Source of the DNA: an uncultured Eubacteriales bacterium
GTDB taxonomy: Bacteria; Acidobacteriota; Aminicenantia; Aminicenantales; Saccharicenantaceae
Length of the DNA stretch: 64,000 nt
Reading direction: 5' to 3'
Assembly: GCA_964523615.1 (NCBI GenBank)
Contig: CAZFZU010000002.1
Span: forward strand, 33,682-97,681
Shown here: positions 7,770-41,673 of the stretch, piece after piece
Layout: every line of letters starts with the position of its first letter
Position numbering within the stretch: the stretch's first letter is position 1
Notes under the pieces: generated by a model
What the model was told of the DNA's origin: nothing
What the model saw: the letters and a program-made list of their open reading frames with translations, nothing else
Databases searched by the model: none
Translations under genes and position numbers: made by a program

Positions 7770-7797
7770 CGAGCGGGGCGGCGGCCCGGCCGGGCCG

Positions 7798-9012: not shown

Positions 9013-9158
9013 GGTCGTTCTATCCGCGGCGGAGCCTCGTTCGCGACCAGGATACTCCGGCCTCCGGCCGGGACAATGCCCTTTGGGGGTGATTTTGGAT
9101 GGTGACGCCTCGCCCCTCGAGGGGGGAAGGGGTGAGGGCGGCGCGGCGGGCCGCCCGG

Positions 9159-16879: not shown

Positions 16880-17808
16880 CGCTGCACCTGTCCCACGAGC
16901 GGGGCCAGGACGGCCCGGTGGGCCTCCGTCCAGACCTCGGGGGCGTCGTATTCGACGGGCATGACCGGCAGGGGGATCCGTTCCTTCAGCCGCGCGGCCA
17001 GGGCCGGCCATTCCGCGGCCAGGGACGATCGGAACCAGATCCGGTCGACGCCCGCCCGCTCCTTGTCCTCGAGGAAACGGAGGGTGTTCTCCGCTTCACG
17101 GACGATGGTCTCGGCCCGCTCGTCCGCGCCCGTCCCGGCGGGCGAGCCGACGTCCTTCTGGCGGTAGAGCGTCCAGCCGGCGCCGGACAGGGCCAGCAGG
17201 GTCAGCGTCTCCTCCTCGAGGTTGAGGAGCAGGCCGGAGGCCGGACCGCCGCGCCGGACGACGTTGGCCAGGGCCAGCGAGGGCGCGGTGACGGCCACGG
17301 GCCTGAGCCCGGCCTTCTCGAACAGGGCCTCGTACTCCCAGACGACGACCTGCCGGGCCATGGCCACGATGACCTGGCGGGGGCCCCGGCCGGCGGTGGC
17401 GGCGTAGTCGATCCGGGCGTCATCGGGGATGACCGGCATCATCTTGCCGACGCGCCAGCGGATGAAGGCGTCGCGCTCCTTGCCCGAGCCGGGGAAGGAG
17501 TCGACGTTCAGGACGAAGACCCGGACCGAGGCCTCGGGGACGAGCAGGGCGGCCGTCCCGGAGGACAGGCGGAGGCTCTTCTTGGCCTGGGCGATGGCCT
17601 CCTCGAGGGCGGCCGGGTCGGACACGTTGGGGCGGTCGAACGACGGGGCCACGGGGCGGGCGCGGAAGGGCAGGACGAAGCCGGCCTTGACCGAGCCGTC
17701 GGCCCGGGAGACGCGCAGGCCGCTGAGGTGGCCGGGGGCGACCTGGAAGACGGCGTCGGCGAGGAGGCGCTCCGTGTAGTGGTCCCGGATCCGTTCGGCG
17801 AGGCTCAC
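16876..17808 (-). CDS. pilM: PilM-like actin-fold pilus assembly protein
   Basis: 310 aa, cytoplasmic, GTG start 3 nt after the pilB stop codon. Position and size fit pilM. Sequence motifs are weak. Confidence 0.65.
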   Translation of the reverse strand: MSLAERIRDHYTERLLADAVFQVAPGHLSGLRVSRADGSVKAGFVLPFRARPVAPSFDRPNVSDPAALEEAIAQAKKSLRLSSGTAALLVPEASVRVFVLNVDSFPGSGKERDAFIRWRVGKMMPVIPDDARIDYAATAGRGPRQVIVAMARQVVVWEYEALFEKAGLRPVAVTAPSLALANVVRRGGPASGLLLNLEEETLTLLALSGAGWTLYRQKDVGSPAGTGADERAETIVREAENTLRFLEDKERAGVDRIWFRSSLAAEWPALAARLKERIPLPVMPVEYDAPEVWTEAHRAVLAPLVGQVQR

Positions 17809-17811
17809 GCG

Positions 17812-28441: not shown

Positions 28442-28897
28442 CTAGTCCTTGTCCTTGTCGCGGTCCTTCTTCGGACCGGGCTTCTTGAGCCGCTCCTCCC
28501 AGGTGATGAAGCTGTGGTAGAAGACGGCGTCCCCCTCGTCGATGCCGCGGGTGATCTCGGTGATGTGCGAGGTCTCGGCCCCGAACTCCTCGATGGCGTA
28601 GATGACGGCCTTGTCGGGCTTGGTCGTGGCCCCGCAGGTGTAGATGTCCAGGGCGGCGTAGCCCTGTTCCGGCCAGGTGTGGGTCGAGATGTGCGACTCG
28701 GAGATGACGACGACCCCGCTGACCCCGGCGGGGGGGAACTTGCTGAAGGAGATGGACCAGACGTGGGCGCCGGCGATCTCGGCGGCCCGGACGAGGATCT
28801 GCTGGACCTTCTCGACGCTGCCGATGATCTTGGGGTCGCAGCCCGAGGCCTCGACGATGTAATGGCGGCCGACGGGGGAATGAGCTGTCTTGACCAT
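28442..28897 (-). CDS. speH: S-adenosylmethionine decarboxylase proenzyme (pyruvoyl, class 1)
   Basis: Self-cleavage motif VVVISESHISTHTWPE, followed by DIYTCG. Confidence 0.9.
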   Translation of the reverse strand: MVKTAHSPVGRHYIVEASGCDPKIIGSVEKVQQILVRAAEIAGAHVWSISFSKFPPAGVSGVVVISESHISTHTWPEQGYAALDIYTCGATTKPDKAVIYAIEEFGAETSHITEITRGIDEGDAVFYHSFITWEERLKKPGPKKDRDKDKD

Positions 28898-28928
28898 CGC
28901 CTTCTCCTTCGCGCGTAACGGGAGTCCG

Positions 28929-28956
28929 ATTATGGCACAACCGGCGATTCTGTCAA
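28929..28956 (-). promoter_or_regulatory. sigma70-like promoter for speH
   Basis: On the minus strand: TTGACA (28956-28951), 16-nt spacer, CATAAT (28934-28929). GAAGGAGAAGG lies in front of the ATG. Confidence 0.55.
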
Positions 28957-28969
28957 GAACGGGAACGGC

Positions 28970-29413
28970 TCAGAGGGGCAGGCGGGGCTCCTCCTTGACC
29001 ACGTTGAGGACCAGGTGGGTGACGGTCCGGTCGACGTGCGGGATGGCCAGGAGGCCCTTGACGAAGCCGTTGAGGTCCTCGCGCCCGGTGAAACGGCCGA
29101 CGATGAAGGCGTCCCAGTCGCCGGTGACGTCGTAGACGGCGGCCACGTGGGGGTCCTGGGCGATCCGCTTCTGGGTCTCGATGAGCCGGCCCTTGGAGAT
29201 GCGCACGGCGACGACGGCGGCCAGGCCGAAGCCGAAGTGCTCCGGGTCGACGACGGGGACGTAGCCCCGGATGGCCCCGGCGGCCTCGAGCTTCTTGACC
29301 GTGTGGATGACCGCCGTGACCGAGGTGCCGACCTCCTTGGCCACCTCGCGGAAGCTCTTGCGGGCGTTGGCGTTGAGGACCCGGATGATCTTCCTGTCCA
29401 GCTCGTCGATCAT
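28970..29413 (-). CDS. Lrp/AsnC-family transcriptional regulator
   Basis: HTH region MIDELDRKIIRVLNANARKSFREVAKEVGTSVTAVIHTVKKLEAAGAI plus a RAM/ACT-like C-terminal domain. The ATG at 29413 is preceded by GGAGG. Confidence 0.85.
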   Translation of the reverse strand: MIDELDRKIIRVLNANARKSFREVAKEVGTSVTAVIHTVKKLEAAGAIRGYVPVVDPEHFGFGLAAVVAVRISKGRLIETQKRIAQDPHVAAVYDVTGDWDAFIVGRFTGREDLNGFVKGLLAIPHVDRTVTHLVLNVVKEEPRLPL

Positions 29414-29483
29414 GGGCGGCGCCTCCAATTATCCTATTTATTACAACAATTAGTTCCATATGTAAATATATTTTTTTTATATA

Positions 29484-29512
29484 TTGACAATCGTCGTCTT
29501 TTGGTCTTAATT
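29484..29512 (+). promoter_or_regulatory. sigma70-like promoter for glnA in an AT-rich divergent control region
   Basis: TTGACA (29484-29489), 17-nt spacer, TTAATT (29507-29512). The 130-bp gap (29414-29559) is the most AT-rich stretch of the window. Confidence 0.5.
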
Positions 29513-29559
29513 ATCTGACATCATAGCGTGCCCGGCCGCCCGGGCGGCGAGGAGGGACC

Positions 29560-30969
29560 ATGGCCCCAGAGGCGAGAACCAAGACCTTCAAGGCGTTCGG
29601 GACGAGGGACGAGAAGGACGTCCTGGCCGTCATCCGCGACCCGGCCAACGAGATCCCCTTCGTCCGGCTGATCTTCCCCGACATCCTGGGCCGGCAGATG
29701 GACTTCACCATCCCGGCTTCGGAGCTCGAGGCCGCCTTCAACGAGGGCAAGGGCTTCGACGGCTCCTCCATCGCCGGCTTCGTCCGCATCGAGGAGTCCG
29801 ACCTCGTCATCAAGCCCGATCCCCGGACCTTCCGGGTCCTGCCCTGGACCTACCAGGGCTTCTCCCCCGACGTCCGCTGGCGCGAGGCCGTCATGTTCGG
29901 CGACATCCTGACGCCCGGCGGCTCGGTCTACGCCGGAGACAGCCGGGCCGCCCTGAAGCGGGTCCTGGGCCGGGCCCGCCGGGAGATGGGCGTCGACGAC
30001 CTCAAATGCGGGCCCGAGCTCGAGTTCTTCATCTTCCCCTCGAGCGAGGCCCCGGTCCCGACCGACACCGGCGGATACTTCTTCAGCGGCCGCCACGGCG
30101 AGGTCCGCAAGGAGATCCAGCTCCTCCTCCACCGCATGGGCATCGCCACGGAGTACGACCACCACGAGGCCGCCCACAGCCAGCACGAGATCGACCTCCG
30201 TTACCTCGACGCCGTCGATATGGCCGACACGGCCATGATCTTCCGCTACATGGTCAAGAAGGTCTGCCGCATGCACGGCCTTTACGCGACGTTCATGCCC
30301 AAACCCGTCAACGGCCAGAACGGCAGCGGCATGCACGTCCACCAATCCCTCTGGCGGGGGGGCCGGAACCTGTTCTTCGACAAGAACGGGCCGTACCACC
30401 TGTCGCTCCTGGCCCAGCGCTACATGGCCGGACTGATGACCCACGCCCGGGAGATCTCGGCCGTCCTCAGCCAATGGGTCAACTCCTACAAGCGCCTCAT
30501 CGAGGGCTACGAGGCCCCCGTCTACGTCGCCTGGGGCCAGAAGAACCGCTCGGCCTACATCCGCGTCCCCGAGTACCAGCCGGGCAAGGAGCGGGCCACG
30601 CGCATCGAGCTCCGGGCCGCCGACCCGGCCTGCAACATCTATCTGGCCTTCGCGGTCATGCTGGCCGCCGGGGCCGAGGGCATTCGGAAAAAGTACGAGC
30701 TCGTCGACCCGGTCGAAGAGAACATCTACCGCATGAGCGGCTCCCGGCAGAAGAAGTTCGAGATCCGGGTCCTGCCCCGCGACCTCGAAGAAGCCGTCCG
30801 GGTCATGGAGAAGAGCGCCGTGGTCAAGGAGGCGCTGGGGGACCACATCTTCGACACGCTCGTCGCCAACAAGCTCAAAGAGGTCGAAGAGTACGCCCGC
30901 AACGTCTCGGGCGAGTTCGAGAAGCAGGTCAGCGACCACGAGATCCGCCGCTACCTGCCCGTGCTCTGA
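29560..30969 (+). CDS. glnA: Glutamine synthetase type I
   Basis: Motifs DGSSIAGF, GSGMHVHQSLW and NRSAYIRVP. 469 aa. Confidence 0.92.
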   Translation: MAPEARTKTFKAFGTRDEKDVLAVIRDPANEIPFVRLIFPDILGRQMDFTIPASELEAAFNEGKGFDGSSIAGFVRIEESDLVIKPDPRTFRVLPWTYQGFSPDVRWREAVMFGDILTPGGSVYAGDSRAALKRVLGRARREMGVDDLKCGPELEFFIFPSSEAPVPTDTGGYFFSGRHGEVRKEIQLLLHRMGIATEYDHHEAAHSQHEIDLRYLDAVDMADTAMIFRYMVKKVCRMHGLYATFMPKPVNGQNGSGMHVHQSLWRGGRNLFFDKNGPYHLSLLAQRYMAGLMTHAREISAVLSQWVNSYKRLIEGYEAPVYVAWGQKNRSAYIRVPEYQPGKERATRIELRAADPACNIYLAFAVMLAAGAEGIRKKYELVDPVEENIYRMSGSRQKKFEIRVLPRDLEEAVRVMEKSAVVKEALGDHIFDTLVANKLKEVEEYARNVSGEFEKQVSDHEIRRYLPVL

Positions 30970-31018
30970 AGCCCGGCGCCGCCTTGCGCCCGGCGGACCG
31001 AAAGCATAAAATGCCGCC

Positions 31019-31492
31019 GTGCGGCCAAACGCGAGCGAACTCGAGGCCCTGACCGGCGCGGTCCGGGGGCAGAGACGGGCCCTGATCCGCGTCCTCCAGG
31101 AGATCCAGGAGCGCTCCGGCTGGCTCCCCCCCGAAGCCCTCGAGCACGTCTCCGCCGCGCTCGGCGTACCGCTGGCCCGCGTCTATGGCGTGGCTACCTT
31201 CTACCGCTCTTTTCGCCTCGCGCCCCGGGGCCGGCACACCTGCACGGTCTGTCTGGGCACGGCCTGCCACGTCCGGGGAGCCGCGGCCGTCCTGGAGCAG
31301 CTCGAGCGGACGCTCGGCGTCCCCGCGGGCGGGACGACGGCGGACGGGCGCTTCACCCTCGAGCGGGTCAACTGTCTTGGCGCCTGCGCCTTGGCTCCCC
31401 TGGCCGTCGTCGACGGGCGTTTCCACGGCCGAATGACCGAGGCCAAAGCCGTGGCCATGCTGGACGCCGTCGAAGAGGACGAGGCCGCTTGA
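31019..31492 (+). CDS. NuoE/HydC-like [2Fe-2S] thioredoxin-fold subunit
   Basis: Motifs CTVCLGTACHVRG and VNCLGACALAP. GTG start. Confidence 0.85.
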   Translation: MRPNASELEALTGAVRGQRRALIRVLQEIQERSGWLPPEALEHVSAALGVPLARVYGVATFYRSFRLAPRGRHTCTVCLGTACHVRGAAAVLEQLERTLGVPAGGTTADGRFTLERVNCLGACALAPLAVVDGRFHGRMTEAKAVAMLDAVEEDEAA

Positions 31493-33318
31493 CGACCGCC
31501 CGGGCCCACATCCTCGTCTGCGCCGGGACGGGTTGCGTCTCCGGCGGCTCTTTCGAGGTCCGCCGCGCCCTCGAGGCCGAGGTCCGCCGCCGCGGGCTCG
31601 AAGGCCAGGTCGAGGTCGTCGCCACGGGCTGCCAGGGCTTCTGCGAGCGGGGTCCGGTCGTCCTCGTCCGGCCCGACGGCGTCTTCTACCAGCGCCTGGC
31701 CCCGGCCGACGTCCCCGAGCTCGTCGAGGAGCACTTCGTCAAAGGCCGTCCGGTCCGGCGGCTGATGTACACGCCGCCCGGGGAGGCCGAGCCGGTCCCC
31801 CTGATGAAGGACATCGGGTTCTTCAAGCACCAGCGGCTCGTCGTCCTGCGCAACCGGGGGCGCATCGACCCGGAGCGGATCGACGAGGCCATCGCCGCGG
31901 ACGGCTACGCCGCCGCGGCCAAAGCCCTGTCCGAAATGACCCCGGACGGCATCATCGCCGAGATCGCGGCCGCGGGCCTGCGCGGCCGGGGCGGGGCGGG
32001 CTTTCCCACCGGCATCAAGTGGCAGGCCACGCGCCGCGCCCCGGGCGACCCCAAATATGTCGTCTGCAACGGCGACGAGGGGGATCCCGGGGCTTTCATG
32101 GACCGCTCCGTGCTCGAGTCCGATCCCCACGCCGTCATCGAGGGCATGATCATCGGAGCCCGGGCCGTCGGCGCCTCCCACGGCTTCCTCTATATCCGCA
32201 ACGAGTATCCTTTGGCCGTCGAGCGCGTCGGACGGGCCCTCGACCAGGCCCGGGCCTACGGTCTCCTGGGCACGGACATCCTCGGCACGGGCTTCGACTT
32301 CGACCTCGAGATCGTCCGCGGCGCCGGGGCCTTCGTTTCGGGCGAGGAGACGGCCCTGATGGCCTCCATCGAGGGCGGCCGGGCCTACCCCCGCCAACGT
32401 CCGCCCTATCCCGCCCAGCGGGGCCTCTGGGGCCTGCCCACGGTCATCAACAACGTCGAGACCTGGGCCAACGTGCCCTCGATCGTCCGCCGCGGGGCGG
32501 CTTGGTTCGCCGGCCTCGGCACGGCCGGGAGCAAGGGCACGAAGATCTTCTCGCTCGTCGGCAAGATCGCCCACACGGGGCTGGTCGAGGTCCCGATGGG
32601 CATCACCTTGCGGGAGATCGTCTACGGCATCGGCGGCGGCGTTCCCGGCGGGCGGGACTTCAAAGCCGTCCAGATCGGCGGGCCTTCCGGCGGCTGCGTT
32701 CCCAAGGCCCTGCTCGACCTGCCCGTCGATTACGAGAGCCTGAAGGCGGCCGGGAGCATGATGGGCTCGGGCGGCATGATCGTCATGGACGAGGACACCT
32801 GCATGGTGGACATCGCCCTGTACTTCCTCCGCTTCGCCGAGGAGGAATCCTGCGGCAAGTGCTCCCCCTGCCGGGTCGGGACGGGCGAGATGGCCCGCCT
32901 CCTGGCCAAGATCACGTCCGGCCGCGGCGAGCCGGCCGACATCGCCCGCCTCGAGGACCTGGCCGGCACGGTCCGGCGGGGCTCCCTCTGCGGGCTCGGC
33001 CAGACGGCGCCCAACCCCGTCCTGACGACCCTGCGCTATTTCCGCGACGAGTACGAGGCCCACGTCCGCGACAAGCGCTGCCCGGCCCTCGTCTGCAAGG
33101 ACCTCATCGCCTTCGCCATCGACCCGGCCAAGTGCGTCGGCTGCCTCCTCTGCAAGAAGGCCTGCCCGGCGGGGGCCATCGCCGGGGAGCTCAAGAAGAC
33201 CCACGTCATCGACGAGGCCGCCTGCATCAAGTGCGGCCTGTGCCTGTCCGTCTGCCCGGCCAAGGTCAGGGCCGTCGTCAAGACCTCGCCGGATCCCGGC
33301 ACCGGAGCGGGACGATGA
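31489..33318 (+). CDS. NuoF/HydB-like NAD(H)-binding flavoprotein with extra N-terminal [2Fe-2S] and C-terminal 2x[4Fe-4S] domains
   Basis: N-terminal ILVCAGTGC...GCQGFCERGP. FMN/NADH site GLRGRGGAGFPTGIKW. N3 cluster ESCGKCSPCRVG. C-terminal CVGCLLCKKACP and CIKCGLCLSVCP. The TTG start overlaps the upstream stop codon (TTGA). Confidence 0.9.
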   Translation: MTTARAHILVCAGTGCVSGGSFEVRRALEAEVRRRGLEGQVEVVATGCQGFCERGPVVLVRPDGVFYQRLAPADVPELVEEHFVKGRPVRRLMYTPPGEAEPVPLMKDIGFFKHQRLVVLRNRGRIDPERIDEAIAADGYAAAAKALSEMTPDGIIAEIAAAGLRGRGGAGFPTGIKWQATRRAPGDPKYVVCNGDEGDPGAFMDRSVLESDPHAVIEGMIIGARAVGASHGFLYIRNEYPLAVERVGRALDQARAYGLLGTDILGTGFDFDLEIVRGAGAFVSGEETALMASIEGGRAYPRQRPPYPAQRGLWGLPTVINNVETWANVPSIVRRGAAWFAGLGTAGSKGTKIFSLVGKIAHTGLVEVPMGITLREIVYGIGGGVPGGRDFKAVQIGGPSGGCVPKALLDLPVDYESLKAAGSMMGSGGMIVMDEDTCMVDIALYFLRFAEEESCGKCSPCRVGTGEMARLLAKITSGRGEPADIARLEDLAGTVRRGSLCGLGQTAPNPVLTTLRYFRDEYEAHVRDKRCPALVCKDLIAFAIDPAKCVGCLLCKKACPAGAIAGELKKTHVIDEAACIKCGLCLSVCPAKVRAVVKTSPDPGTGAGR

Positions 33319-35432
33319 AGCTCCTCATCGACGAGCGCGAGGTCGTTTGCCGGGAGGGGCAGACCGTGCTCGAGGCCGCGCGCGGCGCGGGCATCGCCAT
33401 CCCGTCGCTCTGCGACCACCGGGACCTCGTCCCCTTCGCCGGCTGCCGCGTCTGCCTCGTCGAGGTCGATGGCCGCCGCGATCCGGTCCCGTCCTGCGCC
33501 ACTCCCGCCGAGGACGGCCAGGTCGTCCGGACCCGGACTCCCGAGGTCCTGGCCCTGCGCAGGAAGGTCCTCGAGCTCATCCTGGCCTCCCACCCCTACG
33601 CGTGCCTGGTCTGCGCCGAGAAGCCGTCCTGCGAGGACCTCAAATCGACCATCCGCAAGGTCGGCGAGGTCACCGGTTGCGTCCTCTGTCCCGCGAACGG
33701 CGACTGCGAGCTGCAGCGAGTGGTCGAAGAGGTCGGCTTGGACCGTATCGACGTCCCCGCCGTCTACCGGGGCCGCGAGGTCCGGCGCGACGATCCCTTC
33801 TTCGACCGGGACGACAACCTCTGCATCCTCTGCGGCCGGTGCGTCCGGATCTGCGAGGAGGTCCGCGGCGCCGCCGTCCTGTCCTTCGTCCATCGCGGCG
33901 ACCGGACGCTGGTCGGCACCCCGTTCGACCGCTCGCTCCTCGACTCGGGCTGCCGGTTCTGCGGGGCCTGCGTCGACGCCTGCCCCACGGCGGCCCTGGT
34001 CGAACGGGCGGCCCGGGCCCTGCCCCGGCCCACAGGCGCCGCGACGGTCGTCTGCCCGTTCTGCGGCCAGGGCTGCCGCCTCGAGCTCCGGACGAGGGAC
34101 GGCGAAGTGCTGGCCGCGCGGCCCGCCGAAGGGCCGCCCAACGGCGGGCAGGGCTGCGTCAAGGGCCGCTTCCTGGTCCGCGGCGCGCTATCGGGCCCCG
34201 GCCGGATCCGGGAGGCCCACGTCCGCGAGGACGGCCGGCTCGCGCCTGTCCCCTTTGAAGAGGCCGTCGACCGGGCCGCGCGGGGGCTCTCGGCCGCCGC
34301 CCCGGAGAAACGGGCGCTCCTCTACCCGTCGCAGGCGGCCCTCGAGGACGCCTTCGCCTATCTCGAGTTCGGGCGGCGGACGCTCTCGACGGAGGCCGTC
34401 GAAGCCTCGCCGGCCGCGGCCATCTGGCAGCGGCTCGATGCCCTCGAAGCCGAGCGGGGCCTGCGCATCCCGGCGACCGGGCGGCTGTCCTCGATCGGCG
34501 CCGCAAAAGCCGTCCTGGCCTGGCGGCTCAATCTTCCGGACGACCATCCCCTCGCTTGGCTCGAGGTCGTCCGGGCCGTCCGCGCCGGCGCCCGCTTATT
34601 CGCGGCCGGACGGGTCCCCGCCGGCCCCGTCGGCGCGGCGGCCACGGTCCTCGATCCCGAGGCGGGACCGGACAGGATCGCCCGGGCCCTGCCGGCCGAC
34701 GGACCGACGATCATCCTGTTCGACGCCGCGGCGGCCGCCGGCCCCCGAGGCCTGGACGCCCTCGAGGATCTCTGGACGATCGCCGGACGGACGGGCGCCC
34801 GGCTTTTCCCTCTCGGCCGCACGGCCAATGGCCGCGGCGTCCACGAGCTCGAGCGCGCTCTCGGACGTCCCCCGTACGGGACGGATGGCTCGAGCGTCCG
34901 GGCCCGGCTCGCCGCAGGCGCCTTCGACGCTCTCGTCCTGGCCGCGCCCGCCCCCGACCTCGGGCGGGGAGGCCCGGGTTTCCTCGTCTGCGTGGACACC
35001 CATTGGACGCCCCAAGCGGAAAAGGCCGACGTCGTCCTGCCCGCGGCCGCGTTCGCCGAGGCCGGCGGGACCTGGGTCAGCACGGAAGGCCGGGTCCGGA
35101 CCTACGGCCCGGCCGTCCCCGCTCCCGGCTCGGCCCGTCCCGACCGGGACGTCCTGGCCGCGCTGGCCGACAGGATGGGCCTCCCCGGCCGGATGCCCCG
35201 GGACTGCGACGCCCTGCTGGCGGAGATCCGCCGCCGCGTCCCCGCCCTGGAGGGGTACGATCCGGCCGCGTCCGGGGACGAGTTCTTCCTCCGCGAGGTC
35301 CGTCCGAACAAGCCGCCGCGGACGCCGGCCGGGGCCCGGCCGGCGCCCGACGCGGGGAGGGCGGACGTCCTCCGCGGCTACGATCCGCTCACCGCGAGCC
35401 GGAGCTACGCCAAGATGAGGAGGGCCCGGTAA
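33315..35432 (+). CDS. NuoG-like polyferredoxin subunit with degenerate molybdopterin-oxidoreductase-like C-terminal domain
   Basis: [2Fe-2S] CDHRD..CRVC..C. His-ligated cluster HPYACLVCAEKPSC. Extra CVLCPANGDCELQ. CILCGRCVRIC and CRFCGACVDACP. MopB-type CPFCGQGC...GCVKGRF. No H-cluster motifs and no in-frame TGA. ATGA overlap with the upstream gene. Confidence 0.8.
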   Translation: MKLLIDEREVVCREGQTVLEAARGAGIAIPSLCDHRDLVPFAGCRVCLVEVDGRRDPVPSCATPAEDGQVVRTRTPEVLALRRKVLELILASHPYACLVCAEKPSCEDLKSTIRKVGEVTGCVLCPANGDCELQRVVEEVGLDRIDVPAVYRGREVRRDDPFFDRDDNLCILCGRCVRICEEVRGAAVLSFVHRGDRTLVGTPFDRSLLDSGCRFCGACVDACPTAALVERAARALPRPTGAATVVCPFCGQGCRLELRTRDGEVLAARPAEGPPNGGQGCVKGRFLVRGALSGPGRIREAHVREDGRLAPVPFEEAVDRAARGLSAAAPEKRALLYPSQAALEDAFAYLEFGRRTLSTEAVEASPAAAIWQRLDALEAERGLRIPATGRLSSIGAAKAVLAWRLNLPDDHPLAWLEVVRAVRAGARLFAAGRVPAGPVGAAATVLDPEAGPDRIARALPADGPTIILFDAAAAAGPRGLDALEDLWTIAGRTGARLFPLGRTANGRGVHELERALGRPPYGTDGSSVRARLAAGAFDALVLAAPAPDLGRGGPGFLVCVDTHWTPQAEKADVVLPAAAFAEAGGTWVSTEGRVRTYGPAVPAPGSARPDRDVLAALADRMGLPGRMPRDCDALLAEIRRRVPALEGYDPAASGDEFFLREVRPNKPPRTPAGARPAPDAGRADVLRGYDPLTASRSYAKMRRAR

Positions 35433-36262
35433 TGCCCCGCGTCGTGCGCCGGGAACGGCTGGTCCCCAACATCCACCTCCTCGAGGTCGAGGCCCCGGAG
35501 ATCGCTCGCAAGTGCCGGCCGGGGCAGTTCGTCATCGTCATGCCCGACGCCCGGGGCGAGCGCGTCCCCCTGACCATCGCCGACTGGGACCCCGGCCGCG
35601 GCACGGTCACGGTCGTGTTCATGGCCGTGGGCACGTCGACCCGCAAGCTGGCCCTGCTCGGGAGCGGCGACAGCCTGCCCATCTTCGCCGGTCCTCTCGG
35701 CCGGCCCTCGGACCTGGGCGGCTCCGGCACCGTCCTGTCCGTCGGCGGGTGCTACGGCATCGCCGCCATCCATCCCCTGGCCAGGGCCTATAAGGAAGCC
35801 GGCCGCCGCGTCATCGTCCTCGTCGACGTCAAGGCCGACTACCTCTTCTACTGGCGCGACCGGCTCGCCGCCGTCGCCGACGAGATCCTCGTCTCCTCGC
35901 GGGACGGGCTCAGCGGCGACTGCGCCTTCGTCCCCCGGCAGGTCCGGGAGGTCCTGGAGCGGGAACCGGTGGCCCGGGTCGTCGCCGCCGGCTGCACCTA
36001 CCTCATGTCCAGCGTCGCCGAGGCGACGCGGCCGGCGGGCGTCCCCACGGTCGTCAGCCTCAATCCCGTCATGGTCGACGGGACGGGCATGTGCGGCGCC
36101 TGCCGGGTCACCGTGGGCGGCAAAACCCGGTTCGCCTGCGTCGACGGCCCGGATTTCGACGGCCACCTCGTCGACTGGAACGAGCTCTACGCCCGCCGCA
36201 AGGCCTACTTCGACGACGAGATCCGGTCCGTCTGCGCTTGGGAAGAGGAGAGGTTCCCGTGA
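35432..36262 (+). CDS. nfnA: NfnA/SudB-type FAD, [2Fe-2S] small subunit (PyrK-like)
   Basis: Ferredoxin-reductase fold (RVPLTIADWD, GPLG) and C-terminal GTGMCGACRV...FACVDGP. The start overlaps the upstream stop codon (TAATG). Confidence 0.85.
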   Translation: MPRVVRRERLVPNIHLLEVEAPEIARKCRPGQFVIVMPDARGERVPLTIADWDPGRGTVTVVFMAVGTSTRKLALLGSGDSLPIFAGPLGRPSDLGGSGTVLSVGGCYGIAAIHPLARAYKEAGRRVIVLVDVKADYLFYWRDRLAAVADEILVSSRDGLSGDCAFVPRQVREVLEREPVARVVAAGCTYLMSSVAEATRPAGVPTVVSLNPVMVDGTGMCGACRVTVGGKTRFACVDGPDFDGHLVDWNELYARRKAYFDDEIRSVCAWEEERFP

Positions 36263-37776
36263 GCGACCGCCCGCCCCTCCCTCCCGCCCTGGCGGCCGAG
36301 ATCCTGGCCGAGTTCGAGAAGGGCTGGCGTAAGGAGCTCCGCCGCGCGGTCCCGGTCAAGGACCGCATGAAGATCGGGCGCCGGACGATGCCCGAGCGCG
36401 CGGCCGGCGAACGCAACAAGGACTTCGCCGAGGTCAACCTCGGGCTCGGCCCCGAAGAGGCCATGCTCGAGGCCCGGCGCTGCCTGGACTGCGCCAAGCC
36501 CGCCTGCGTCACCGGCTGCCCCGTGCGCATCGACATCCCCAGCTTCGTCAAGCTCGTGGAGAGGGGCGAGTTCGCGGCCGCGGCGGCCAAGGTCCGCGAG
36601 GCCAACAGCCTGCCGGCCGTCTGCGGCCGGGTCTGCCCGCAGGAGACGCAGTGCGAGGAGACCTGCCACCTCCGCAAGGCCACGGGCGTGGCCGTGGCCA
36701 TCGGCAACCTGGAGCGTTTCGTCTCCGACTTCGAGCGTCTCGAGGGCGGCTCGGTCTTCCCCGCCTGCGCCCCGCCCTCGGGCCGCAAGGCCGCCGTCGT
36801 CGGCGCCGGCCCGGCCGGCCTGACCGTGGCCGGGGAGCTGGCCCGCCGCGGCCACGAGGTCACGGTCTTCGAGGCCCTGCACGAGCCCGGCGGCGTGCTC
36901 GTCTACGGCATCCCCGAGTTCCGCCTGCCCAAGAGCATCCTGGTGGCCGAGGTGGCCTACCTCGAGCGGCTCGGCGTCGCGTTCCGGATGAACTTCATCG
37001 TCGGCAAGACGGCCACCGTCGAGGACCTCTTCGCCGACGGTTACGGGGCCGTGTTCATCGGGACCGGGGCCGGCCTGCCCAACTTCATGGACATCCCCGG
37101 CGAGAACCTGGTCGGCGTCTATTCGGCCAACGAGTACCTGACCCGCGTCAACCTCATGCGGGCCTACGACTTTCCCCGCTACGACACCCCGGTGTCGCCG
37201 GGCCGCCGGGCCGTGGTCGTCGGCGGCGGCAACGTGGCCATGGACTCCGTCCGCACGGCCAAACGCCTGGGGGCCGAGGAGGCCCTCATCGTCTACCGCC
37301 GCTCCCGGGCCGAGATGCCGGCCCGCATCGAGGAGGTCCACCACGCCGAGGAGGAGGGCATCCGGTTCCACTTCCTGACGGTGCCGACGCGCTACATCGG
37401 CGACGAGCGCGGCCGGGTCCGGGCCATGGAGTGCCTGCGCATGGAGCTCGGCGAGCCCGACGCCTCGGGCCGCCGCCGGCCCGTGCCCGTCCCCGGTTCG
37501 GAATTCACGACCGAGGTCGACCTCGTCGTCTGCGCCATCGGCCAGAGCCCCAATCCGCTCATCCCCCAGACGACCCCCGGCCTGGAGGTCGGCAAATGGG
37601 GCACGATCGTGGTCGACGCGCGGACGATGGCCACCTCCCTGCCGGGCGTCTATGCCGGCGGCGACATCGTCCGGGGCGGGGCGACCGTCATCCTGGCCAT
37701 GGGCGACGCCCGGGTCGCCGCGGCCGCCATGGACCGCCGCCTGCGCGGCGTACCGGAACCCGAGCCCGGGACCTGA
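36259..37776 (+). CDS. nfnB: NfnB/GltD-type FAD, 2x[4Fe-4S], NADPH-binding large subunit
   Basis: Cluster motifs CLDCAKPACVTGCP and CGRVCPQETQCEETC. Dinucleotide folds VVGAGPAGLTVAGELARRGHEVTVFE and VVVGGGNVAMDSVRTA. The GTG start overlaps the upstream stop codon (GTGA). Confidence 0.9.
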   Translation: MSDRPPLPPALAAEILAEFEKGWRKELRRAVPVKDRMKIGRRTMPERAAGERNKDFAEVNLGLGPEEAMLEARRCLDCAKPACVTGCPVRIDIPSFVKLVERGEFAAAAAKVREANSLPAVCGRVCPQETQCEETCHLRKATGVAVAIGNLERFVSDFERLEGGSVFPACAPPSGRKAAVVGAGPAGLTVAGELARRGHEVTVFEALHEPGGVLVYGIPEFRLPKSILVAEVAYLERLGVAFRMNFIVGKTATVEDLFADGYGAVFIGTGAGLPNFMDIPGENLVGVYSANEYLTRVNLMRAYDFPRYDTPVSPGRRAVVVGGGNVAMDSVRTAKRLGAEEALIVYRRSRAEMPARIEEVHHAEEEGIRFHFLTVPTRYIGDERGRVRAMECLRMELGEPDASGRRRPVPVPGSEFTTEVDLVVCAIGQSPNPLIPQTTPGLEVGKWGTIVVDARTMATSLPGVYAGGDIVRGGATVILAMGDARVAAAAMDRRLRGVPEPEPGT

Positions 37777-37794
37777 GCCCCGACGGAGACGCCG

Positions 37795-39501
37795 ATGAAA
37801 AAGCCCCTCGCCCTCGTAACGCTCGCCGCCGCCCTGCTGGCCGCCCTCGCCTGCGGCGGCCGTCCGGGGGACTCCCCGGCCGACCTCGTCCTGACCGGCG
37901 GCACGGTCCGCACCCTGTCGGCGGCCCGGCCGAGGGCCGAGGCCCTCGCCGTGGCCGGCGGACGCGTCGTCTACGTCGGCGACGCCGCGGGCGTCCGCCG
38001 CTTCCAAGGGCCGGCGACACGGGTCGTGGACCTCGGCGGACGGGCGGTCCTGCCGGCCTTCCGGGACTCCCACATCCACCTGGTCACGGGCGGCGTCGAG
38101 CTTCTGGCCTGCAACGTCGCCGGGCTGGCCACGAAAGAGGCGGTCTTCGGCCGCGTCCGGGAATACGCTTCGGCCCATCCGGAGCTGCCCTGGGTGACCG
38201 GCGGCGGCTGGGACCTGCCCCTCTTCCCCCAGGCCAACCCGAGGAAGGAGGACCTCGACGCCCTGGTCCCCGACCGCCCGGCCGTCCTCGATTCGGCCGA
38301 CGGCCATTCGGCCTGGGCCAACTCGCGGGCCCTGGCCCTGGCCGGCGTCACCCGGGCCACCCCCGACCCTGAGGGCGGCCGCATCGAGCGCGACCCGGCC
38401 ACGGGCGAGCCGACGGGAACGCTCCGGGAGAGCGCCGCCGGCCTGGTCGAACGCCTCGTCCCCCCGCTGCGCCCTGAAGACTATATTAGAGGATTGCGGG
38501 CCGGCCTCGCCCTCGCCAACCGCCACGGCATCGTCGCCATCGTCGAGGCCAGCGCCGGGCCCGACCTGCTCGACGCCTACGCCGCCCTGGACCGGTCCGG
38601 GGAGCTCTCCGTCCGGGTCCTGGCCTCCCTCCACGTCGATACCGGCCGAGGAACTTCGGAAGCGGCGCGCCTGACGGGGCTGCGCCGGCGATACGCCGGG
38701 ACGCGGCTCAAGGCCACCGCGGCCAAGATCTTCGCCGACGGGGTCATGGAGCCCCACACGGCCGCTCTCCTCGAGCCCTACGTCGACCGTCCGGGCGACC
38801 GGGGCACGCCCCTCCTCGAGCCCGAGGCCTTCGACCGCCTGGCCGTGGCCCTCGACCGGGCCGGCTTCCAGGTCCACGTCCACGCCATCGGCGACCGGGC
38901 CGTGCGCATGTCCCTCGACGCCTTCGAGGCGGCCGGGCGGGCCAACGGCTTCCGGGACATGCGCCATCACATCGCCCACCTCGAGCTCGTCGACCCGGCC
39001 GACATCCCGCGCTTCCGGAAGCTCGGCGCGGCGGCCAACTTCCAGGCCCTGTGGGCCTACGCCGATCCCTACATCACGGACCTGACCCTGCCCATCCTCG
39101 GGCCGGCCCGCTCGCGCTGGCTCTACCCGATCGCGAGCGTCGCCGCGACCGGGGCCGCCCTCGTCGGCGGCAGCGACTGGTCCGTGTCGTCCCTGGACCC
39201 CTTGGAGGCCATCGAGGTCGCCCTGACCCGGCGCTCGCCGGACGACCCGCCCGGCGAGCCCTGGATCCCCGAGGAGCGGGCCGATCTCGAGACCATGCTC
39301 CGGGCCTACACCGTGAACGGGGCCTGGCTGGCCCGCGAGGAGGCGGCGCGCGGCCCGCTCGAGCCCGGCAAAGCCGCCGACCTCGTCGTCCTCGACCGCG
39401 ATCCCTTCGCCGTGCCGCCCCAGGGCCTTTCGGAGATCCGGGTCCTCCTGACCCTCCTCGACGGCCGCGAGGTCTACCGCGAACCGTCCTTCGCTCGCTG
39501 A
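37795..39501 (+). CDS. Amidohydrolase-3 (YtcJ-like) metal-dependent hydrolase, lipoprotein
   Basis: Lipobox LAALAC. Metal motif FRDSHIHL near the N-terminus. HVHAIGD. C-terminal DLVVLDRDP. Confidence 0.8.
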   Translation: MKKPLALVTLAAALLAALACGGRPGDSPADLVLTGGTVRTLSAARPRAEALAVAGGRVVYVGDAAGVRRFQGPATRVVDLGGRAVLPAFRDSHIHLVTGGVELLACNVAGLATKEAVFGRVREYASAHPELPWVTGGGWDLPLFPQANPRKEDLDALVPDRPAVLDSADGHSAWANSRALALAGVTRATPDPEGGRIERDPATGEPTGTLRESAAGLVERLVPPLRPEDYIRGLRAGLALANRHGIVAIVEASAGPDLLDAYAALDRSGELSVRVLASLHVDTGRGTSEAARLTGLRRRYAGTRLKATAAKIFADGVMEPHTAALLEPYVDRPGDRGTPLLEPEAFDRLAVALDRAGFQVHVHAIGDRAVRMSLDAFEAAGRANGFRDMRHHIAHLELVDPADIPRFRKLGAAANFQALWAYADPYITDLTLPILGPARSRWLYPIASVAATGAALVGGSDWSVSSLDPLEAIEVALTRRSPDDPPGEPWIPEERADLETMLRAYTVNGAWLAREEAARGPLEPGKAADLVVLDRDPFAVPPQGLSEIRVLLTLLDGREVYREPSFAR

Positions 39502-39536
39502 ACGGCCGGGCGGCTGTTTACGGCCGGCCCGATCTG

Positions 39537-39545
39537 TGCTATAAA
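39537..39545 (+). promoter_or_regulatory. Extended -10 promoter element for the M50 protease/scpAB genes
   Basis: TGcTATAAA lies 16 nt upstream of the ATG at 39562. Confidence 0.4.
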
Positions 39546-39561
39546 TGATGCTCTTTTACCC

Positions 39562-40206
39562 ATGGATATCCGTCTGATCCTCGTCCAGGTCTTCGTCATC
39601 CTCTTCGCCATCACCGTGCACGAAGCCGCCCACGCCTGGACGGCGAACAGGATGGGCGATCCCACGGCCGCCGCCCTGGGCCGGGCCTCCCTCAACCCGC
39701 TGGTCCACATCGACCCCATCGGCACGGTCATCTTCCCGCTCATCCTCATCCTGTTCAAGATGCCCGTGTTCGGCTGGGCCAAGCCCGTCCCCTACAATCC
39801 CTACAACCTTCGGCACGCGAAAAAAGGCGGCCTGTGGATCTCTTTCGCCGGGCCCATCGCCAACATCCTGACGGCGGGGGCCGCCGTCCTCCTGTTCCGC
39901 GTCCTGCGGCTCTTCGGGGCCCGCGTCACGGACCTGGCCGCCCTCTCGAAGCCGCTCGAAGGATTGAGCGTCATCCTGCTGTTCACGGCCCTGATCAACA
40001 TCTCCCTGGCGGTCTTCAACCTCATCCCCGTTCCGCCCCTCGACGGCAGCGGCATCCTGGCCGGCCTGCTGAGCGGTCGGGCCGCGGAGCAGTACGAGCG
40101 GCTGAGGCCCTACGGCTTCCTCATCCTCCTGGCCATCATGTACAGCGGCGTCCTGAACCTGATCTTCTCGCCGGTCCAGAACCTCATCCTCAGGCTTTTC
40201 AGCTAG
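39562..40206 (+). CDS. Site-2 protease family (peptidase M50) membrane metalloprotease
   Basis: HEAAHAW in the first transmembrane helix, followed by NLIPVPPLDG. 214 aa, polytopic. Confidence 0.8.
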   Translation: MDIRLILVQVFVILFAITVHEAAHAWTANRMGDPTAAALGRASLNPLVHIDPIGTVIFPLILILFKMPVFGWAKPVPYNPYNLRHAKKGGLWISFAGPIANILTAGAAVLLFRVLRLFGARVTDLAALSKPLEGLSVILLFTALINISLAVFNLIPVPPLDGSGILAGLLSGRAAEQYERLRPYGFLILLAIMYSGVLNLIFSPVQNLILRLFS

Positions 40207-40207
40207 C

Positions 40208-41008
40208 ATGACCGAGACCGTCCCCGACGTCACTCCCGCCGACGAGGCCCCCGTCCCGCCTGTCGCGGCCGAGCCCGGCGACGGCTACCAGGTCCGCCTG
40301 GACGTCTTCGAGGGCCCGCTCGACCTCCTCCTGTTCCTCATCCGCAAGAAGAAGATCGACATCCACGACATCCCCATCGCCGCCATCACCCGGGACTACC
40401 TCGGCTACCTCGAGCGCAAGTCCGAGATCAACCTCGACCGCGAGGCCGAGTTCCTGTTCATCGCGGCCCTGCTGATCTACATCAAGTCCCAGATGCTCCT
40501 GCCCCGGGAGACCGACCTGGCCGAGGGCGAGGACCCCCGCCGGGTCCTGGTCGACCGGCTCGTCGAGTACGAGAAGGTCAAGGCGGCCTGCTCTCTGCTC
40601 CGCGAGCGCGAGGACGTCCAGATCCTGCAGTGGAAGCGGGACTTCATCCCGCCCCTGTCGGGCGAGAGCGACCTCGAGCCGGTCGAACTGTCCCTGTTCG
40701 ACCTGGCCGAATCCTTCTTCCGGATGATGCGGCGCCGGGCCGCCGACGACACCCGGATCATCCGCGGCCGGGACGTCTCGGTCGAGGTCAAGATGAAGGA
40801 GCTGGTGACGCTCCTCCACGACAAGGGGATGTTCGATTTCCTCGCCTACTTCGAGGCCCACGAAACGCTCGAGGAGGCCCTGGTCTCCTTCTTCTGCGTC
40901 CTCGAGCTGGTCAAGTCCCGGGTGGCCGTGGCCGTCCAGGACGAGCTCTTCCAGACCATCCGGGTCTGGCTCCGCAAGGACGCCCGCAGGACGGAAAGCC
41001 ATGACTGA
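40208..41008 (+). CDS. scpA: Segregation and condensation protein A
   Basis: FEGPLDLLLFLIRKKKIDIHDIPIAAIT is the hallmark ScpA N-terminus. Confidence 0.9.
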   Translation: MTETVPDVTPADEAPVPPVAAEPGDGYQVRLDVFEGPLDLLLFLIRKKKIDIHDIPIAAITRDYLGYLERKSEINLDREAEFLFIAALLIYIKSQMLLPRETDLAEGEDPRRVLVDRLVEYEKVKAACSLLREREDVQILQWKRDFIPPLSGESDLEPVELSLFDLAESFFRMMRRRAADDTRIIRGRDVSVEVKMKELVTLLHDKGMFDFLAYFEAHETLEEALVSFFCVLELVKSRVAVAVQDELFQTIRVWLRKDARRTESHD

Positions 41009-41546
41009 CCTCAAGACCCTCGTCGAAGCCCTCATCTTCGTCTCCCAGGAGCCGGCCACCCCGGCCGCCCTCCAGGCCGTCCTCGAAGGCGTCCCCGCGG
41101 CCGACATCGAGGCCGCCGTCGAGGCCCTGGTCGCCGACTACGCCTCCGGCGGCCGGGGCATCCAGATCGTCCGCACCGGCGGCGGCTGGCTGTTCAAGAC
41201 CAAGCCGGACCACGACCGCGAGGTCCGCAAGCTCCTCCAGATCGAGCGCAAGAACCGCCTGTCGTCGGCCGGCCTCGAGACCCTGGCCGCCATCGCCTAC
41301 CGCCAGCCCGTGACCCAGGCCGAGATCTCGGCCATCCGGGGCGTCGACTCGACGGGGGCGCTGAAGACCCTGCTCGAGAAGAAGCTCATCAAGATCGTCG
41401 GCCGCAAGAAGGCCCCCGGCAATCCCCTCGTCTACCGGACCTCCGAGGAGTTCCTGCTCTACCTCGGCCTCGACAGCCTCGAGGACCTGCCTTCCGAGAC
41501 GGAGATCGCCAAGATCCTCGAGGAGGAGAAGGCCGTCGACGCCTGA
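41001..41546 (+). CDS. scpB: Segregation and condensation protein B
   Basis: Motifs LVEALIFVSQEP, LETLAIIAYRQPVTQAEISAIRGV and GRKKAPGNPLVYRTS. It overlaps scpA by 8 nt. Confidence 0.9.
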   Translation: MTDLKTLVEALIFVSQEPATPAALQAVLEGVPAADIEAAVEALVADYASGGRGIQIVRTGGGWLFKTKPDHDREVRKLLQIERKNRLSSAGLETLAAIAYRQPVTQAEISAIRGVDSTGALKTLLEKKLIKIVGRKKAPGNPLVYRTSEEFLLYLGLDSLEDLPSETEIAKILEEEKAVDA

Positions 41547-41578
41547 CCGCTAAGTGTAGACGGGACCTCGACTTAGAG

Positions 41579-41607
41579 TTGACACGGAGGACATTCTCGG
41601 ATAGTAT
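41579..41607 (+). promoter_or_regulatory. Strong sigma70-like promoter for rpsA
   Basis: TTGACA (41579-41584), 17-nt spacer, TAGTAT (41602-41607). The leader before the ATG at 41674 is about 60 nt. Confidence 0.7.
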
Positions 41608-41673
41608 GAAGCGTCTTTTCCGGCCCCCTGAGGACGGGACGTCTCCGAATCACCTTTTCAGGAGCATTGCGCC

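Follow-up and report, generated by a model that had tools for sequence, protein, structure and literature searches.

In a 64,000-nucleotide (nt) stretch of DNA from an uncultured Aminicenantes bacterium, hereafter ‘the window’ (assembly GCA_964523615.1, contig CAZFZU010000002.1, positions 33,682–97,681 of the forward strand; all positions below are in window numbering), five consecutive genes join the subunits of a Bfu-type flavoenzyme core to a complete NfnSL pair. We propose, with a probability that we put at roughly 60%, that these genes encode one soluble iron-sulfur flavoprotein complex, in which a Bfu core would carry NfnSL as its NADP(H) module. Physical association of the five proteins is the part of this proposal that we hold most firmly, and consider likely; that the complex acts as a NAD(H)/ferredoxin/NADP(H) transhydrogenase seems about as probable as the proposal taken whole, and that two of its flavin sites operate in series is a more tentative suggestion. 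The case for one complex is built on the intact, bifurcating-type character of the subunits, their conserved linkage and tight gene junctions, a relative in which the nfn genes are sandwiched among the bfu genes, and the fusion of BfuA to NfnS in many lineages; an as yet undescribed variant of the Bfu family, with NfnSL as the NADP(H) module, is the most likely description of the set.

The genes, numbered 1 to 5, encode BfuC, BfuB, BfuA, NfnS (NfnA) and NfnL (NfnB), and lie on the plus strand in that order. Each overlaps the next: by TTGA at 31489–31492 (genes 1/2), ATGA at 33315–33318 (genes 2/3), TAATG at 35430–35434 (genes 3/4) and GTGA at 36259–36262 (genes 4/5), exactly as an earlier, sequence-only reading of this DNA had described them. 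Genes 2, 4 and 5 have GAGG-like Shine-Dalgarno strings 4–7 nt 5' of their start codons. All starts given here are longest-reading-frame choices, and are backed by the lengths of homologues; residue 3 of the gene 2 product pairs with residue 3 of A. mobile HydB, and genes 1 and 5 fit genes called at full length in a related locus (L005). The window has a G+C content of about 70%, and the frame of gene 3 stays open for a further 1.8 kb upstream, across gene 2, giving a spurious 1299-amino-acid (aa) open reading frame (ORF) at 31533–35432 (+), and gene 4 shows the same, with a frame open from 34556. Such extensions are artefacts of the high G+C content, by which gene callers could be misled.

Genes 1 and 2 have the make-up of a BfuBC core. 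Gene 1 (31019–31492, +; 157 aa, GTG start) encodes a NuoE-like BfuC/HydC with a Pfam 2Fe-2S_thioredx domain (PF01257, E 2e-49, residues 14–151), and has in CTVCLGTAC...CLGAC the four cysteines expected for the C1 [2Fe-2S] cluster of BfuC. Gene 2 (31489–33318, +; 609 aa, TTG start) encodes a NuoF-like BfuB/HydB, in which Pfam recognises Complex1_51K, NADH_4Fe-4S, an N-terminal thioredoxin-like 2Fe-2S domain and a C-terminal 2x[4Fe-4S] domain. Its sites comprise that for flavin mononucleotide (FMN) and NADH, the B1 cluster, the N-terminal [2Fe-2S] cluster B5, an RCPALVC motif (B2/Zn) and the C-terminal 2x[4Fe-4S] ferredoxin-binding domain (B3/B4); in other words, the NuoF core together with the B5, B2 and B3/B4 extras by which BfuB is recognised (sensu Schut 2022). 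The best solved match is A. mobile NiFe-HydB (7t2r_B; 855 bits, residues 3–591 on residues 3–591), against 710–815 bits for HydB, NfnB and StnB of other solved Bfu enzymes, with the StnB/NfnB chains of Stn/NfnABC at 710–733 bits. Aligned with A. mobile HydB, gene 2 keeps every cysteine of B1, B2 (Zn), B3, B4 and B5, plus the GGPSGG loop that has been called typical of bifurcating members. Both Pfam and this alignment bear out the extra N-terminal 2Fe-2S domain and the two C-terminal 4Fe-4S motifs that the sequence-only reading had assigned to gene 2.

We also considered, and rejected, the N-module of respiratory complex I (NuoEFG) as the identity of genes 1–3: gene 2 has the Bfu-specific sites B2–B5, and no other nuo genes are present in the window. 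NCBIfam HoxE/NuoE models (gene 1) and NuoF models (gene 2) score below their cut-offs or barely above them, and NuoG models (gene 3) score below.

Gene 3 (33315–35432, +; 705 aa, ATG start) encodes a NuoG-like BfuA. Its Pfam domains are Fer2_4, NADH-G_4Fe-4S_3, Fer4_Nqo3, Molybdop_Fe4S4 and a partial Molybdopterin domain, and it has ligand sets for a [2Fe-2S] cluster, a His-ligated cluster, two ferredoxin-like [4Fe-4S] clusters and a MopB-type [4Fe-4S] cluster, the MopB domain itself being degenerate. Neither a hydrogenase domain, nor an in-frame stop, nor a C-terminal Molydop_binding domain (PF01568) was found in it by Pfam and inspection of the sequence, and neither Cys nor His occurs where gene 3 aligns with the part of FdsA which we take to hold the Mo-ligand Cys-His pair. 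A PDB sequence search gives Csac NfnA of NfnABC, FdsA and NiFe-HydA as its best solved relatives, and an AlphaFold2 (AF2) model from a 114-sequence alignment (predicted local distance difference test score, pLDDT, 84.5; predicted template modelling score 0.87) superposes on FdsA, NuoG and NiFe-HydA at template modelling (TM) scores of 0.72–0.81. Because the FdsA-aligned stretch lacks Cys and His, the Molydop_binding domain is missing and the fold matches, we take gene 3 to encode a catalytically empty wire and scaffold, as would befit a counterpart of NuoG, NiFe-HydA and StnC. What had been read from the letters, namely a NuoG/HydA-type cluster set without H-cluster motifs, a selenocysteine (Sec) codon or an obvious catalytic site, is upheld by Pfam, by the absence of an in-frame stop and by the FdsA alignment.

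A formate dehydrogenase or hydrogenase was rejected as the identity of gene 3, there being no Mo ligand and no H-cluster domain, and the curated models scoring far under their cut-offs (112 bits against a cut-off of 666 for the formate dehydrogenase model TIGR01591). The window's version of this BfuA is among the most reduced: close relatives of about 762 aa have a segment of some 60 residues that is missing here, and relatives of 830–880 aa have the Molydop_binding domain, missing here too (alignment A1, columns 455–511 and 780–867).

The description of gene 3 as a wire, which we share as far as the missing catalytic site is concerned, appears nonetheless to fall short of the whole. Residues 93–131 (33591–33707, +) hold a tandem duplicate of the His-cluster motif, H93-x3-C97-x2-C100-x5-C106, then 15 residues, then C122-x2-C125-x5-C131, and so three cysteines beyond the normal NuoG His-cluster motif. 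None of H93, C97, C100, C106, C125 and C131 varies in any of the three alignments that we made (A1, A2 and A3); C122 does not vary in A1 or A3 either, and its conservation in A2 (114 sequences) is 90% or more. The exact 39-residue pattern recurs in 216 of 238 homologues, the others being spacing variants. None of the solved relatives aligns across this duplicated motif. With an alignment of just 15 sequences, the AF2 model of gene 3 fell below a pLDDT of 50 over residues 92–236.

Residues 3–98 of gene 3 align with residues 6–101 of Csac NfnA, and residues 115–330 with 556–772, while residues 76–501 of gene 5 align with residues 98–504 of the same chain. It follows from these alignments that the NfnL-like domain of Stn/NfnABC has been inserted exactly at the Cys repeat of gene 3, between the equivalents of residues 98 and 115; the GltD part has been placed at residues 102–565 (Kumar 2023). 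BfuA of the window may therefore be more than a plain wire, in that it bears an extra, conserved Cys3 motif at the very site of the Stn/NfnABC insertion.

Genes 4 and 5 encode, as far as their sequences can tell, a canonical NfnSL. Gene 4 (35432–36262, +; 276 aa, ATG start) is NfnA/NfnS, a PyrK-like protein with a domain for flavin adenine dinucleotide (FAD) and NAD(H) and a DHODB Fe-S domain; it matches P. furiosus NfnS (5jca_S) at E 3e-83 and the T. maritima subunit (4ylf_A) at E 2e-60, and scores 336 bits with NCBIfam PRK06222 (cut-off 220). Its Asp(Cys)3 [2Fe-2S] motif, D-G-T-G-M-C221-G-A-C224...C236, is identical to that of both crystallised enzymes. Gene 5 (36259–37776, +; 505 aa, GTG start) is NfnB/NfnL, GltD-like, with a Fer4_20 domain and Rossmann folds for FAD and NADP(H). 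It matches T. maritima NfnB (4ylf_B) with 538 bits (E 1e-160) and P. furiosus NfnL (5jca_L) with 522 bits (E 9e-156), compared with just 297–350 bits for the NfnL-like domains of Stn/NfnABC, and reaches 615 bits with the NfnB-type model TIGR01316 (cut-off 472). Two [4Fe-4S] motifs are kept (C75/78/83/87 and C122/126/132/136, with the Glu ligand in CPQE), as is the arginine of GIPEFRLPK, which in NfnL lies near N5 of the FAD. Over their full length, gene 4 is 39–47% and gene 5 is 55–57% identical to the T. maritima and P. furiosus enzymes, and the sequence features that define NfnS and NfnL are all found in genes 4 and 5, respectively.

The matches in Pfam, NCBIfam and the PDB thus agree with the sequence-only reading, both in the NfnA and NfnB motifs that it saw in genes 4 and 5 and in its view that the gene string joins a BfuBC module to a full NfnAB via a catalytically empty NuoG-like protein. 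It had further remarked that no catalytic subunit of a hydrogenase or formate dehydrogenase lies nearby and that the flanking genes are glnA and an amidohydrolase; our annotation agrees, and extends the absence of such catalytic subunits to the whole window.

GTDB species genomes were scanned with the repeat motif of gene 3, which matched at least 599 stretches, 587 of them encoding a relative; the taxonomic spread and the linkage counts given here rest on the best 80 of the at least 587 confirmed matches, together with further loci. Nearly all of these 80 loci belong to Aminicenantes, and the named gene 3 homologues are Candidatus Aminicenantes. Among 89 related loci, an NfnA gene comes next after gene 3, on the same strand, in every one of the 83 with enough downstream sequence, and the other cluster genes are absent only at contig ends. 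Genes 2 and 3 overlap in 68 of 87 loci and genes 3 and 4 in 71 of 83, by TAATG or TGATG, and the spacing between genes 4 and 5 is mostly 18–28 nt. Gene 3 is the most divergent subunit (32–75% identity), with genes 4 and 5 at 55–89% and NfnS in particular at 55–86%. As the arrangement recurs in every related locus that is long enough, it is not a chance juxtaposition.

The flanks vary by lineage within Aminicenantes, being either glnA with an amidohydrolase or alaDH with an acetyl-CoA hydrolase; in several of these loci, glnA (or alaDH) again lies immediately upstream and the amidohydrolase downstream. In other lineages plsX-fabH-fabD-fabG adjoins the cluster, and these neighbours, whether glnA/alaDH or the fab-type set, weakly suggest a role in NADPH supply. 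Genes with DRTGG, HATPase_c and PHP domains stand beside the cluster in three loci (L006, 3411–6035; L092, 885–4617; L095, 1–3201), in the first of them between bfuC and bfuB, and a Fe_hyd_lg_C (HydS-like sensory hydrogenase) gene lies near the cluster in L092 and L095. These neighbours resemble the regulatory sets of HydABC operons, so that a role in sensing redox state or H2 suggests itself.

Searching again, with the most distant locus as the query, brought in homologues from other lineages. All five genes are present in each of the six distant homologues that were looked up, every time in a new genomic context. The labels among them include an Anaerolineae metagenome-assembled genome (MAG), a ‘Bathyarchaeia’ MAG, ‘bacterium I07’ and an Acidobacteriota MAG, and we count only the Anaerolineae and ‘Bathyarchaeia’ labels as informative. 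In the ‘Bathyarchaeia’ contig (L091) the order is BfuB-BfuA-NfnA-NfnB-BfuC, so that the nfn genes are sandwiched within the bfu genes; the same argument from sandwiching has been used for Codh-Bfu and Mbh-Bfu as single enzymes (Schut 2022). The nfnB homologue of ‘bacterium I07’ (L092, 10464–11817) is split over two frames near 10965 and was left uncalled, through either a frameshift error or decay into a pseudogene.

Fusions carry the argument furthest. Where two proteins occur as a gene fusion, their separately encoded counterparts are classically inferred to interact, and it is for this reason that we regard the fusions described here as the strongest argument for one complex. A search of 1.84 billion representative proteins with gene 4 gave as its top match an 838-aa single polypeptide, BfuA-NfnS, with NfnS at residues 550–813. 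At least eight clusters of such proteins, with less than 50% mutual identity and lengths of about 835–1080 aa, share a gene 3-like BfuA, including the double Cys motif, and a gene 4-like NfnS, as judged by Pfam and BLAST (the proteins examined were P0239, P0247, P0253, P0312, P0267, P0287, P0309 and P0243); their NCBI annotation reads no more than ‘sulfide/dihydroorotate dehydrogenase-like FAD/NAD-binding protein’. Copies of the same length occur in independent assemblies, one of them from a Promethearchaeia MAG, and at E<=1e-50 the fused family numbers 1621 proteins or more. Its cultured hosts, sulfate reducers among them, include Desulfonatronum lacustre, D. thiodismutans, D. thioautotrophicum, D. 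parangueonense and Desulfogranum japonicum, and it is further found in MAGs of Phycisphaerales, Omnitrophica, Vicinamibacteria and Desulfobulbus. The D. lacustre locus (L096, KI912608.1) encodes BfuC, BfuB, a HicAB pair, BfuA-NfnS (7001–9526) and NfnL, with identities to the window's five proteins, in gene order, of 44, 55, 40, 48 and 60%. The HicA/HicB-type toxin-antitoxin pair (PF07927, PF21748; 6446–6912) interrupts a cluster that is otherwise tight.

A further variation is seen in Aminicenantes, where seven of 91 loci (L041, L047, L057, L064, L070, L083 and L087) have a second GltD/NfnB-like module, 33–48% identical to gene 5, that separates gene 3 from the BfuB core. In L041 (4850–8005) this module is fused in frame to BfuB (1051 aa), replacing the C-terminal 2x[4Fe-4S] ferredoxin-like domain, and nfnA and nfnB still follow; such an enzyme would possess a pair of GltD-type flavin sites and might lack a ferredoxin site.

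Synthesising these findings, we suggest how the complex might work. Genes 1 and 2 would form the BfuBC bifurcation core, handling NAD(H) at the FMN and ferredoxin at the C-terminal B3/B4 clusters; gene 3 would serve as the BfuA wire, its molybdopterin-like domain being merely scaffold; and NfnSL, as the NADP(H)-reactive third-substrate module, would fill the place that a hydrogenase, a formate dehydrogenase or a fused GltD domain takes in other Bfu enzymes. NADH and reduced ferredoxin would then be confurcated at the BfuBC flavobicluster, and the resulting mid-potential electrons would pass along BfuA into the [4Fe-4S] branch of NfnL, where the FAD would join them with NADH-derived electrons from NfnS to yield NADPH, or the reverse. 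We tentatively favour two sites in series because the cofactor motifs of NfnS are all intact, its sequence is strongly conserved and many lineages have it fused to BfuA. By electron bookkeeping, this serial model would consume 3 NADH and one two-electron equivalent of reduced ferredoxin, Fd(2e-), per 4 NADPH, as against 2 NADH and 2 Fd(2e-), and would thereby halve the ferredoxin cost relative to NfnSL or Stn; run in reverse, it could deliver ferredoxin far below -500 mV, down to about -680 mV on the physiological potentials quoted in Schut 2022. There are precedents for both of its elements, since an inert BfuA with separate catalytic subunits is known in Bfu enzymes such as NiFe-HydABCSL, and class II benzoyl-CoA reductase couples a HydBC-type module to a second bifurcating flavin (Schut 2022). 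More speculative still, and somewhat less probable than the serial arrangement by itself, is the idea of a hierarchical ‘NfnSL-Bfu’, in which the NfnL FAD and the BfuBC flavobicluster, as mechanistically different bifurcation sites, would act in series via BfuA, and the split five-gene form, whose duplicated Cys motif would mark the place of the later insertion, would be the evolutionary link between free NfnSL and fused Stn/NfnABC.

Several observations weigh against a single complex of this kind, or against parts of it. Genes 4 and 5 are so near to stand-alone NfnSL (55–57% identity for NfnL) that they could work alone. Cluster-linked NfnL proteins from different phyla share 59–62% mutual identity, against 57% to T. 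maritima NfnB, and a mutual identity so barely higher gives no clear sign of NfnL having adapted to a partner; the identity matrix is small, with too few sequences for a phylogeny, and holds a marginal signal for a special NfnL clade and a clearer one for NfnS. At exactly the duplicated motif of gene 3, residues 91–130, the pLDDT of the AF2 model (114 sequences) drops to 44–58. The limits of the operon are blurred, in that from glnA to scpB the genes all point the same way and lie close together, and a scan of 28800–41700 for promoters and terminators gave no promoter-like or convincing terminator-like site inside this string. Energetics is a last concern. NADPH is usually taken to lie at roughly -380 mV. 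The mean donor of the serial model would lie at about -335 mV, as computed from the physiological potentials quoted in Schut 2022, and is the weaker of the two, so that both direction and benefit would depend on cellular ratios.

The alternative that survives best, which we nevertheless think unlikely, is again a single complex, and one that would work in the manner of Stn: the sole bifurcating site would be the BfuBC flavobicluster, electrons would run from NADPH through the NfnL FAD and the FeS clusters of BfuA to that site, NfnS would be a structural subunit or a side entry, and the stoichiometry would be 1 NADH : 1 Fd(2e-) : 2 NADPH. It draws on the same linkage and fusion evidence as the arrangement that we favour, and it is consistent both with the alignment of gene 3 to Csac NfnA on either side of the NfnL-like insert and with the fact that in Stn/NfnABC the BfuA-attached, NfnL-type FAD domain is a non-bifurcating entry for NADPH. 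What tells against it is NfnS, which Stn lacks (no NfnA homologue; Kumar 2023) and which is here always present, strongly conserved, full-length and with its ligand motif kept, and is indeed the very subunit that becomes fused to BfuA; moreover, gene 5 has the NfnL-type Glu cluster ligand and not the Lys of NfnABC. The label of ‘Stn-like variant’ that the sequence-only reading had offered as one of two options fails, gene 3 having no fused GltD domain and NfnA being present, whereas its other option, a single complex, now has strong independent support from conservation across phyla, from the gene order of the ‘Bathyarchaeia’ contig and from the BfuA-NfnS fusions.

That one transcription unit encodes two independent enzymes, a free NfnAB and a BfuABC with a partner encoded elsewhere, merely co-regulated, is to our minds more doubtful again. 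The near-canonical genes 4 and 5 do speak for it, the pair being active alone in T. maritima and P. furiosus, and the DRTGG, HATPase, PHP and HydS-like genes of some lineages would fit a co-regulated redox regulon. Yet BfuA and NfnS are single polypeptides in many lineages, the nfn genes sit amid the bfu genes in the ‘Bathyarchaeia’ contig, and linkage is universal among related loci even though the flanks change; no alternative catalytic partner occurs in about 95 loci or in the window, and a BfuABC core by family definition also uses a third substrate, usually by way of a catalytic domain or extra subunits (Schut 2022). The least probable alternative, one complex that acts on another substrate, be it an NfnII/Xfn-like enzyme, a sulfide- or iron-reductase-type GltD or an input to a glutamate-synthase-like partner, can appeal to the many partners that GltD-family proteins serve, including SudA, SfrB and GltD (Kremp 2020), to the apparently non-bifurcating NfnII of P. 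furiosus and to glnA or alaDH directly upstream in Aminicenantes, and is countered by the score of gene 5 above the TIGR01316 cut-off and its 55–57% identity to proven NfnL enzymes, by the absence of a GltB-like gene from every locus and by the lineage-specific nature of the nitrogen-assimilation neighbours.

Around the cluster, glnA lies upstream at 29560–30969 and the amidohydrolase downstream at 37795–39501; together with the five genes, peptidase M50, scpA and scpB, they form a co-directional string (29560–41546) with gaps of at most 61 nt. The rest of the window holds an aldehyde:ferredoxin oxidoreductase, peptidases, transporters, aminotransferases and genes of type II secretion/type IV pilus type. 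The first of these is tungsten-type (AFOR_N and AFOR_C; 10478–12334, −), overlaps a class II aldolase-like gene (9159–10481, −), and, at a distance of about 20 kb from the five-gene cluster, is a further enzyme that depends on ferredoxin. A secretin (Secretin_N, Secretin) with a C-terminal cohesin domain, at 13189–15318 (−), belongs to a type II secretion system (T2SS)/type IV pilus-like set with T2SSE, T2SSF and T2SSM_b (13189–20645), and a 1028-aa ORF at 50465–53551 (+) shows an unusual pairing of Peptidase_M23 (residues 446–543) with a class III aminotransferase (residues 616–1014). The only tRNA in the window backed by both ARAGORN and Rfam is tRNA-Met (7655–7730, −). Two further ARAGORN calls, tRNA-Gly at 33991–34077 (+) within gene 3 and tRNA-Ser at 40615–40708 (−) within scpA, have no support at the Rfam gathering score and were set aside; lying inside coding genes, both are probably false positives in G+C-rich coding sequence.

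The field presents NfnSL and Stn/NfnABC as separate solutions to one problem, and the present cluster joins a complete NfnSL to a Bfu core. If our proposal is right, the Bfu family would gain a new class; two bifurcation modules would be coupled in one enzyme for the second time, class II benzoyl-CoA reductase being the first case; and the set would offer a concrete intermediate for the entry of the NfnL domain into BfuA. It would also bear on the balance of NADH, NADPH and ferredoxin in abundant uncultured anaerobes, Aminicenantes and others, and, as the four-gene fused version is present in the cultured D. lacustre, it is directly testable. The sequence-only reading had not recognised the five-subunit set as a characterised enzyme. 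In keeping with this, the literature that we searched holds no description of a BfuABC and NfnSL cluster or of a BfuA-NfnS fusion, with the proviso that the spreadsheet supplement of Schut 2022 lay outside the search and may hold an entry; our survey of gene neighbourhoods finds the set to be recurrent.

The Bfu family (sensu Schut 2022) is marked, beyond its subunits, by tightly coupled turnover of NAD(H), ferredoxin and a third substrate; each of its features that can be read from sequence is found here, and a Type 3 Bfu enzyme, with NfnSL as putative extra subunits, would be the better label. A BfuA of Type 3 has the A3 cluster and leaves the third substrate to additional subunits (Schut 2022); gene 3 agrees in its ligand sets and in the absence of a catalytic domain, genes 4 and 5 are the additional genes, and the binding of their products to BfuA is what the fusions would suggest. 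The Bfu types recognised to date are FeFe, NiFe, Fdh, Nfn (fused), F420, Wor, Bam, Codh, Por, Mbh, Nuo and Rub, with no NfnSL type among them (Schut 2022), and of the four architectures given in a review of Nfn, none has Bfu or Nuo parts. The N-module of respiratory complex I has a plain NuoF that comes with membrane and Q-module nuo genes, whereas gene 2 carries B2–B5 and has no such genes for company; FdsABG and the molybdopterin oxidoreductases have Mo/W-ligating Cys or Sec and His and complete molybdopterin guanine dinucleotide domains, which gene 3 is without. SfrAB, the NADPH:Fe(III)/ferredoxin oxidoreductase of Geobacter sulfurreducens, resembles the present set, by its description, in pairing a NuoG/Fdh-like SfrA with a GltD-like SfrB as separate polypeptides, and to our knowledge has neither a BfuBC core nor NfnS. 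Both SfrA and SfrB have been listed as relatives of StnC (Kremp 2020).

With the characterised NfnAB/NfnSL of T. maritima and P. furiosus (PDB 4ylf, 5jca), genes 4 and 5 agree over their full length and in all cofactor motifs. Those enzymes are free heterodimers, whereas the window's pair is overlap-coupled to BfuABC, is always encoded with BfuC, BfuB and BfuA, in place of the free two-subunit or NfnA-NfnB-fused form without a HydBC or Nuo partner, and is fused to BfuA through NfnS in relatives. Stn/NfnABC (S. ovata, C. saccharolyticus, T. sibiricus; PDB 8oh5, 9bov, 9n5u) shares with the window's set the BfuBC core, a NuoG-like BfuA wire with an inert formate-dehydrogenase-like domain and an NfnL/GltD-type FAD module as the NADP(H) site. 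In Stn/NfnABC, however, the NfnL-like domain lies inside BfuA, has lost bifurcation and has a Lys ligand, while the window encodes a separate, canonical NfnL with a Glu ligand; and Stn/NfnABC has three subunits and no NfnA/NfnS, while the window encodes a complete NfnS. The set thus departs from Stn at two points, gene 3 having just a 25-residue Cys-rich repeat at the fusion site and NfnS being present. According to recent papers, Kumar 2023 among them, Nfn has no HydBC homologue and Stn no NfnA homologue, and most species have one or the other.

Parallels for the overall design are to be found in two other enzymes. NiFe-HydABCSL of A. mobile (Type 3 Bfu; PDB 7t2r, 7t30) provides the closest solved BfuB, has a NuoG-like BfuA with a cofactor-less MopB-like domain, and handles its third substrate by two separately encoded extra subunits, as we propose here for NfnSL; its extra subunits are a NiFe hydrogenase and not NfnSL, its third module is itself non-bifurcating, and the His-cluster motif of its HydA is single, with no counterpart of the Cys3 repeat of gene 3. 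Class II benzoyl-CoA reductase, Bam[(BC)2DEFGHI]2 of Geobacter metallireducens (Bam-Bfu), differs in having an HdrA-type second module, a reduced aromatic ring as the product, formed at a tungsten cofactor, and ETF as the high-potential acceptor. It resembles our proposal in that a HydBC/Bfu-type confurcating module is wired, within one complex, to a second flavin bifurcation module, so that two sites are coupled hierarchically.

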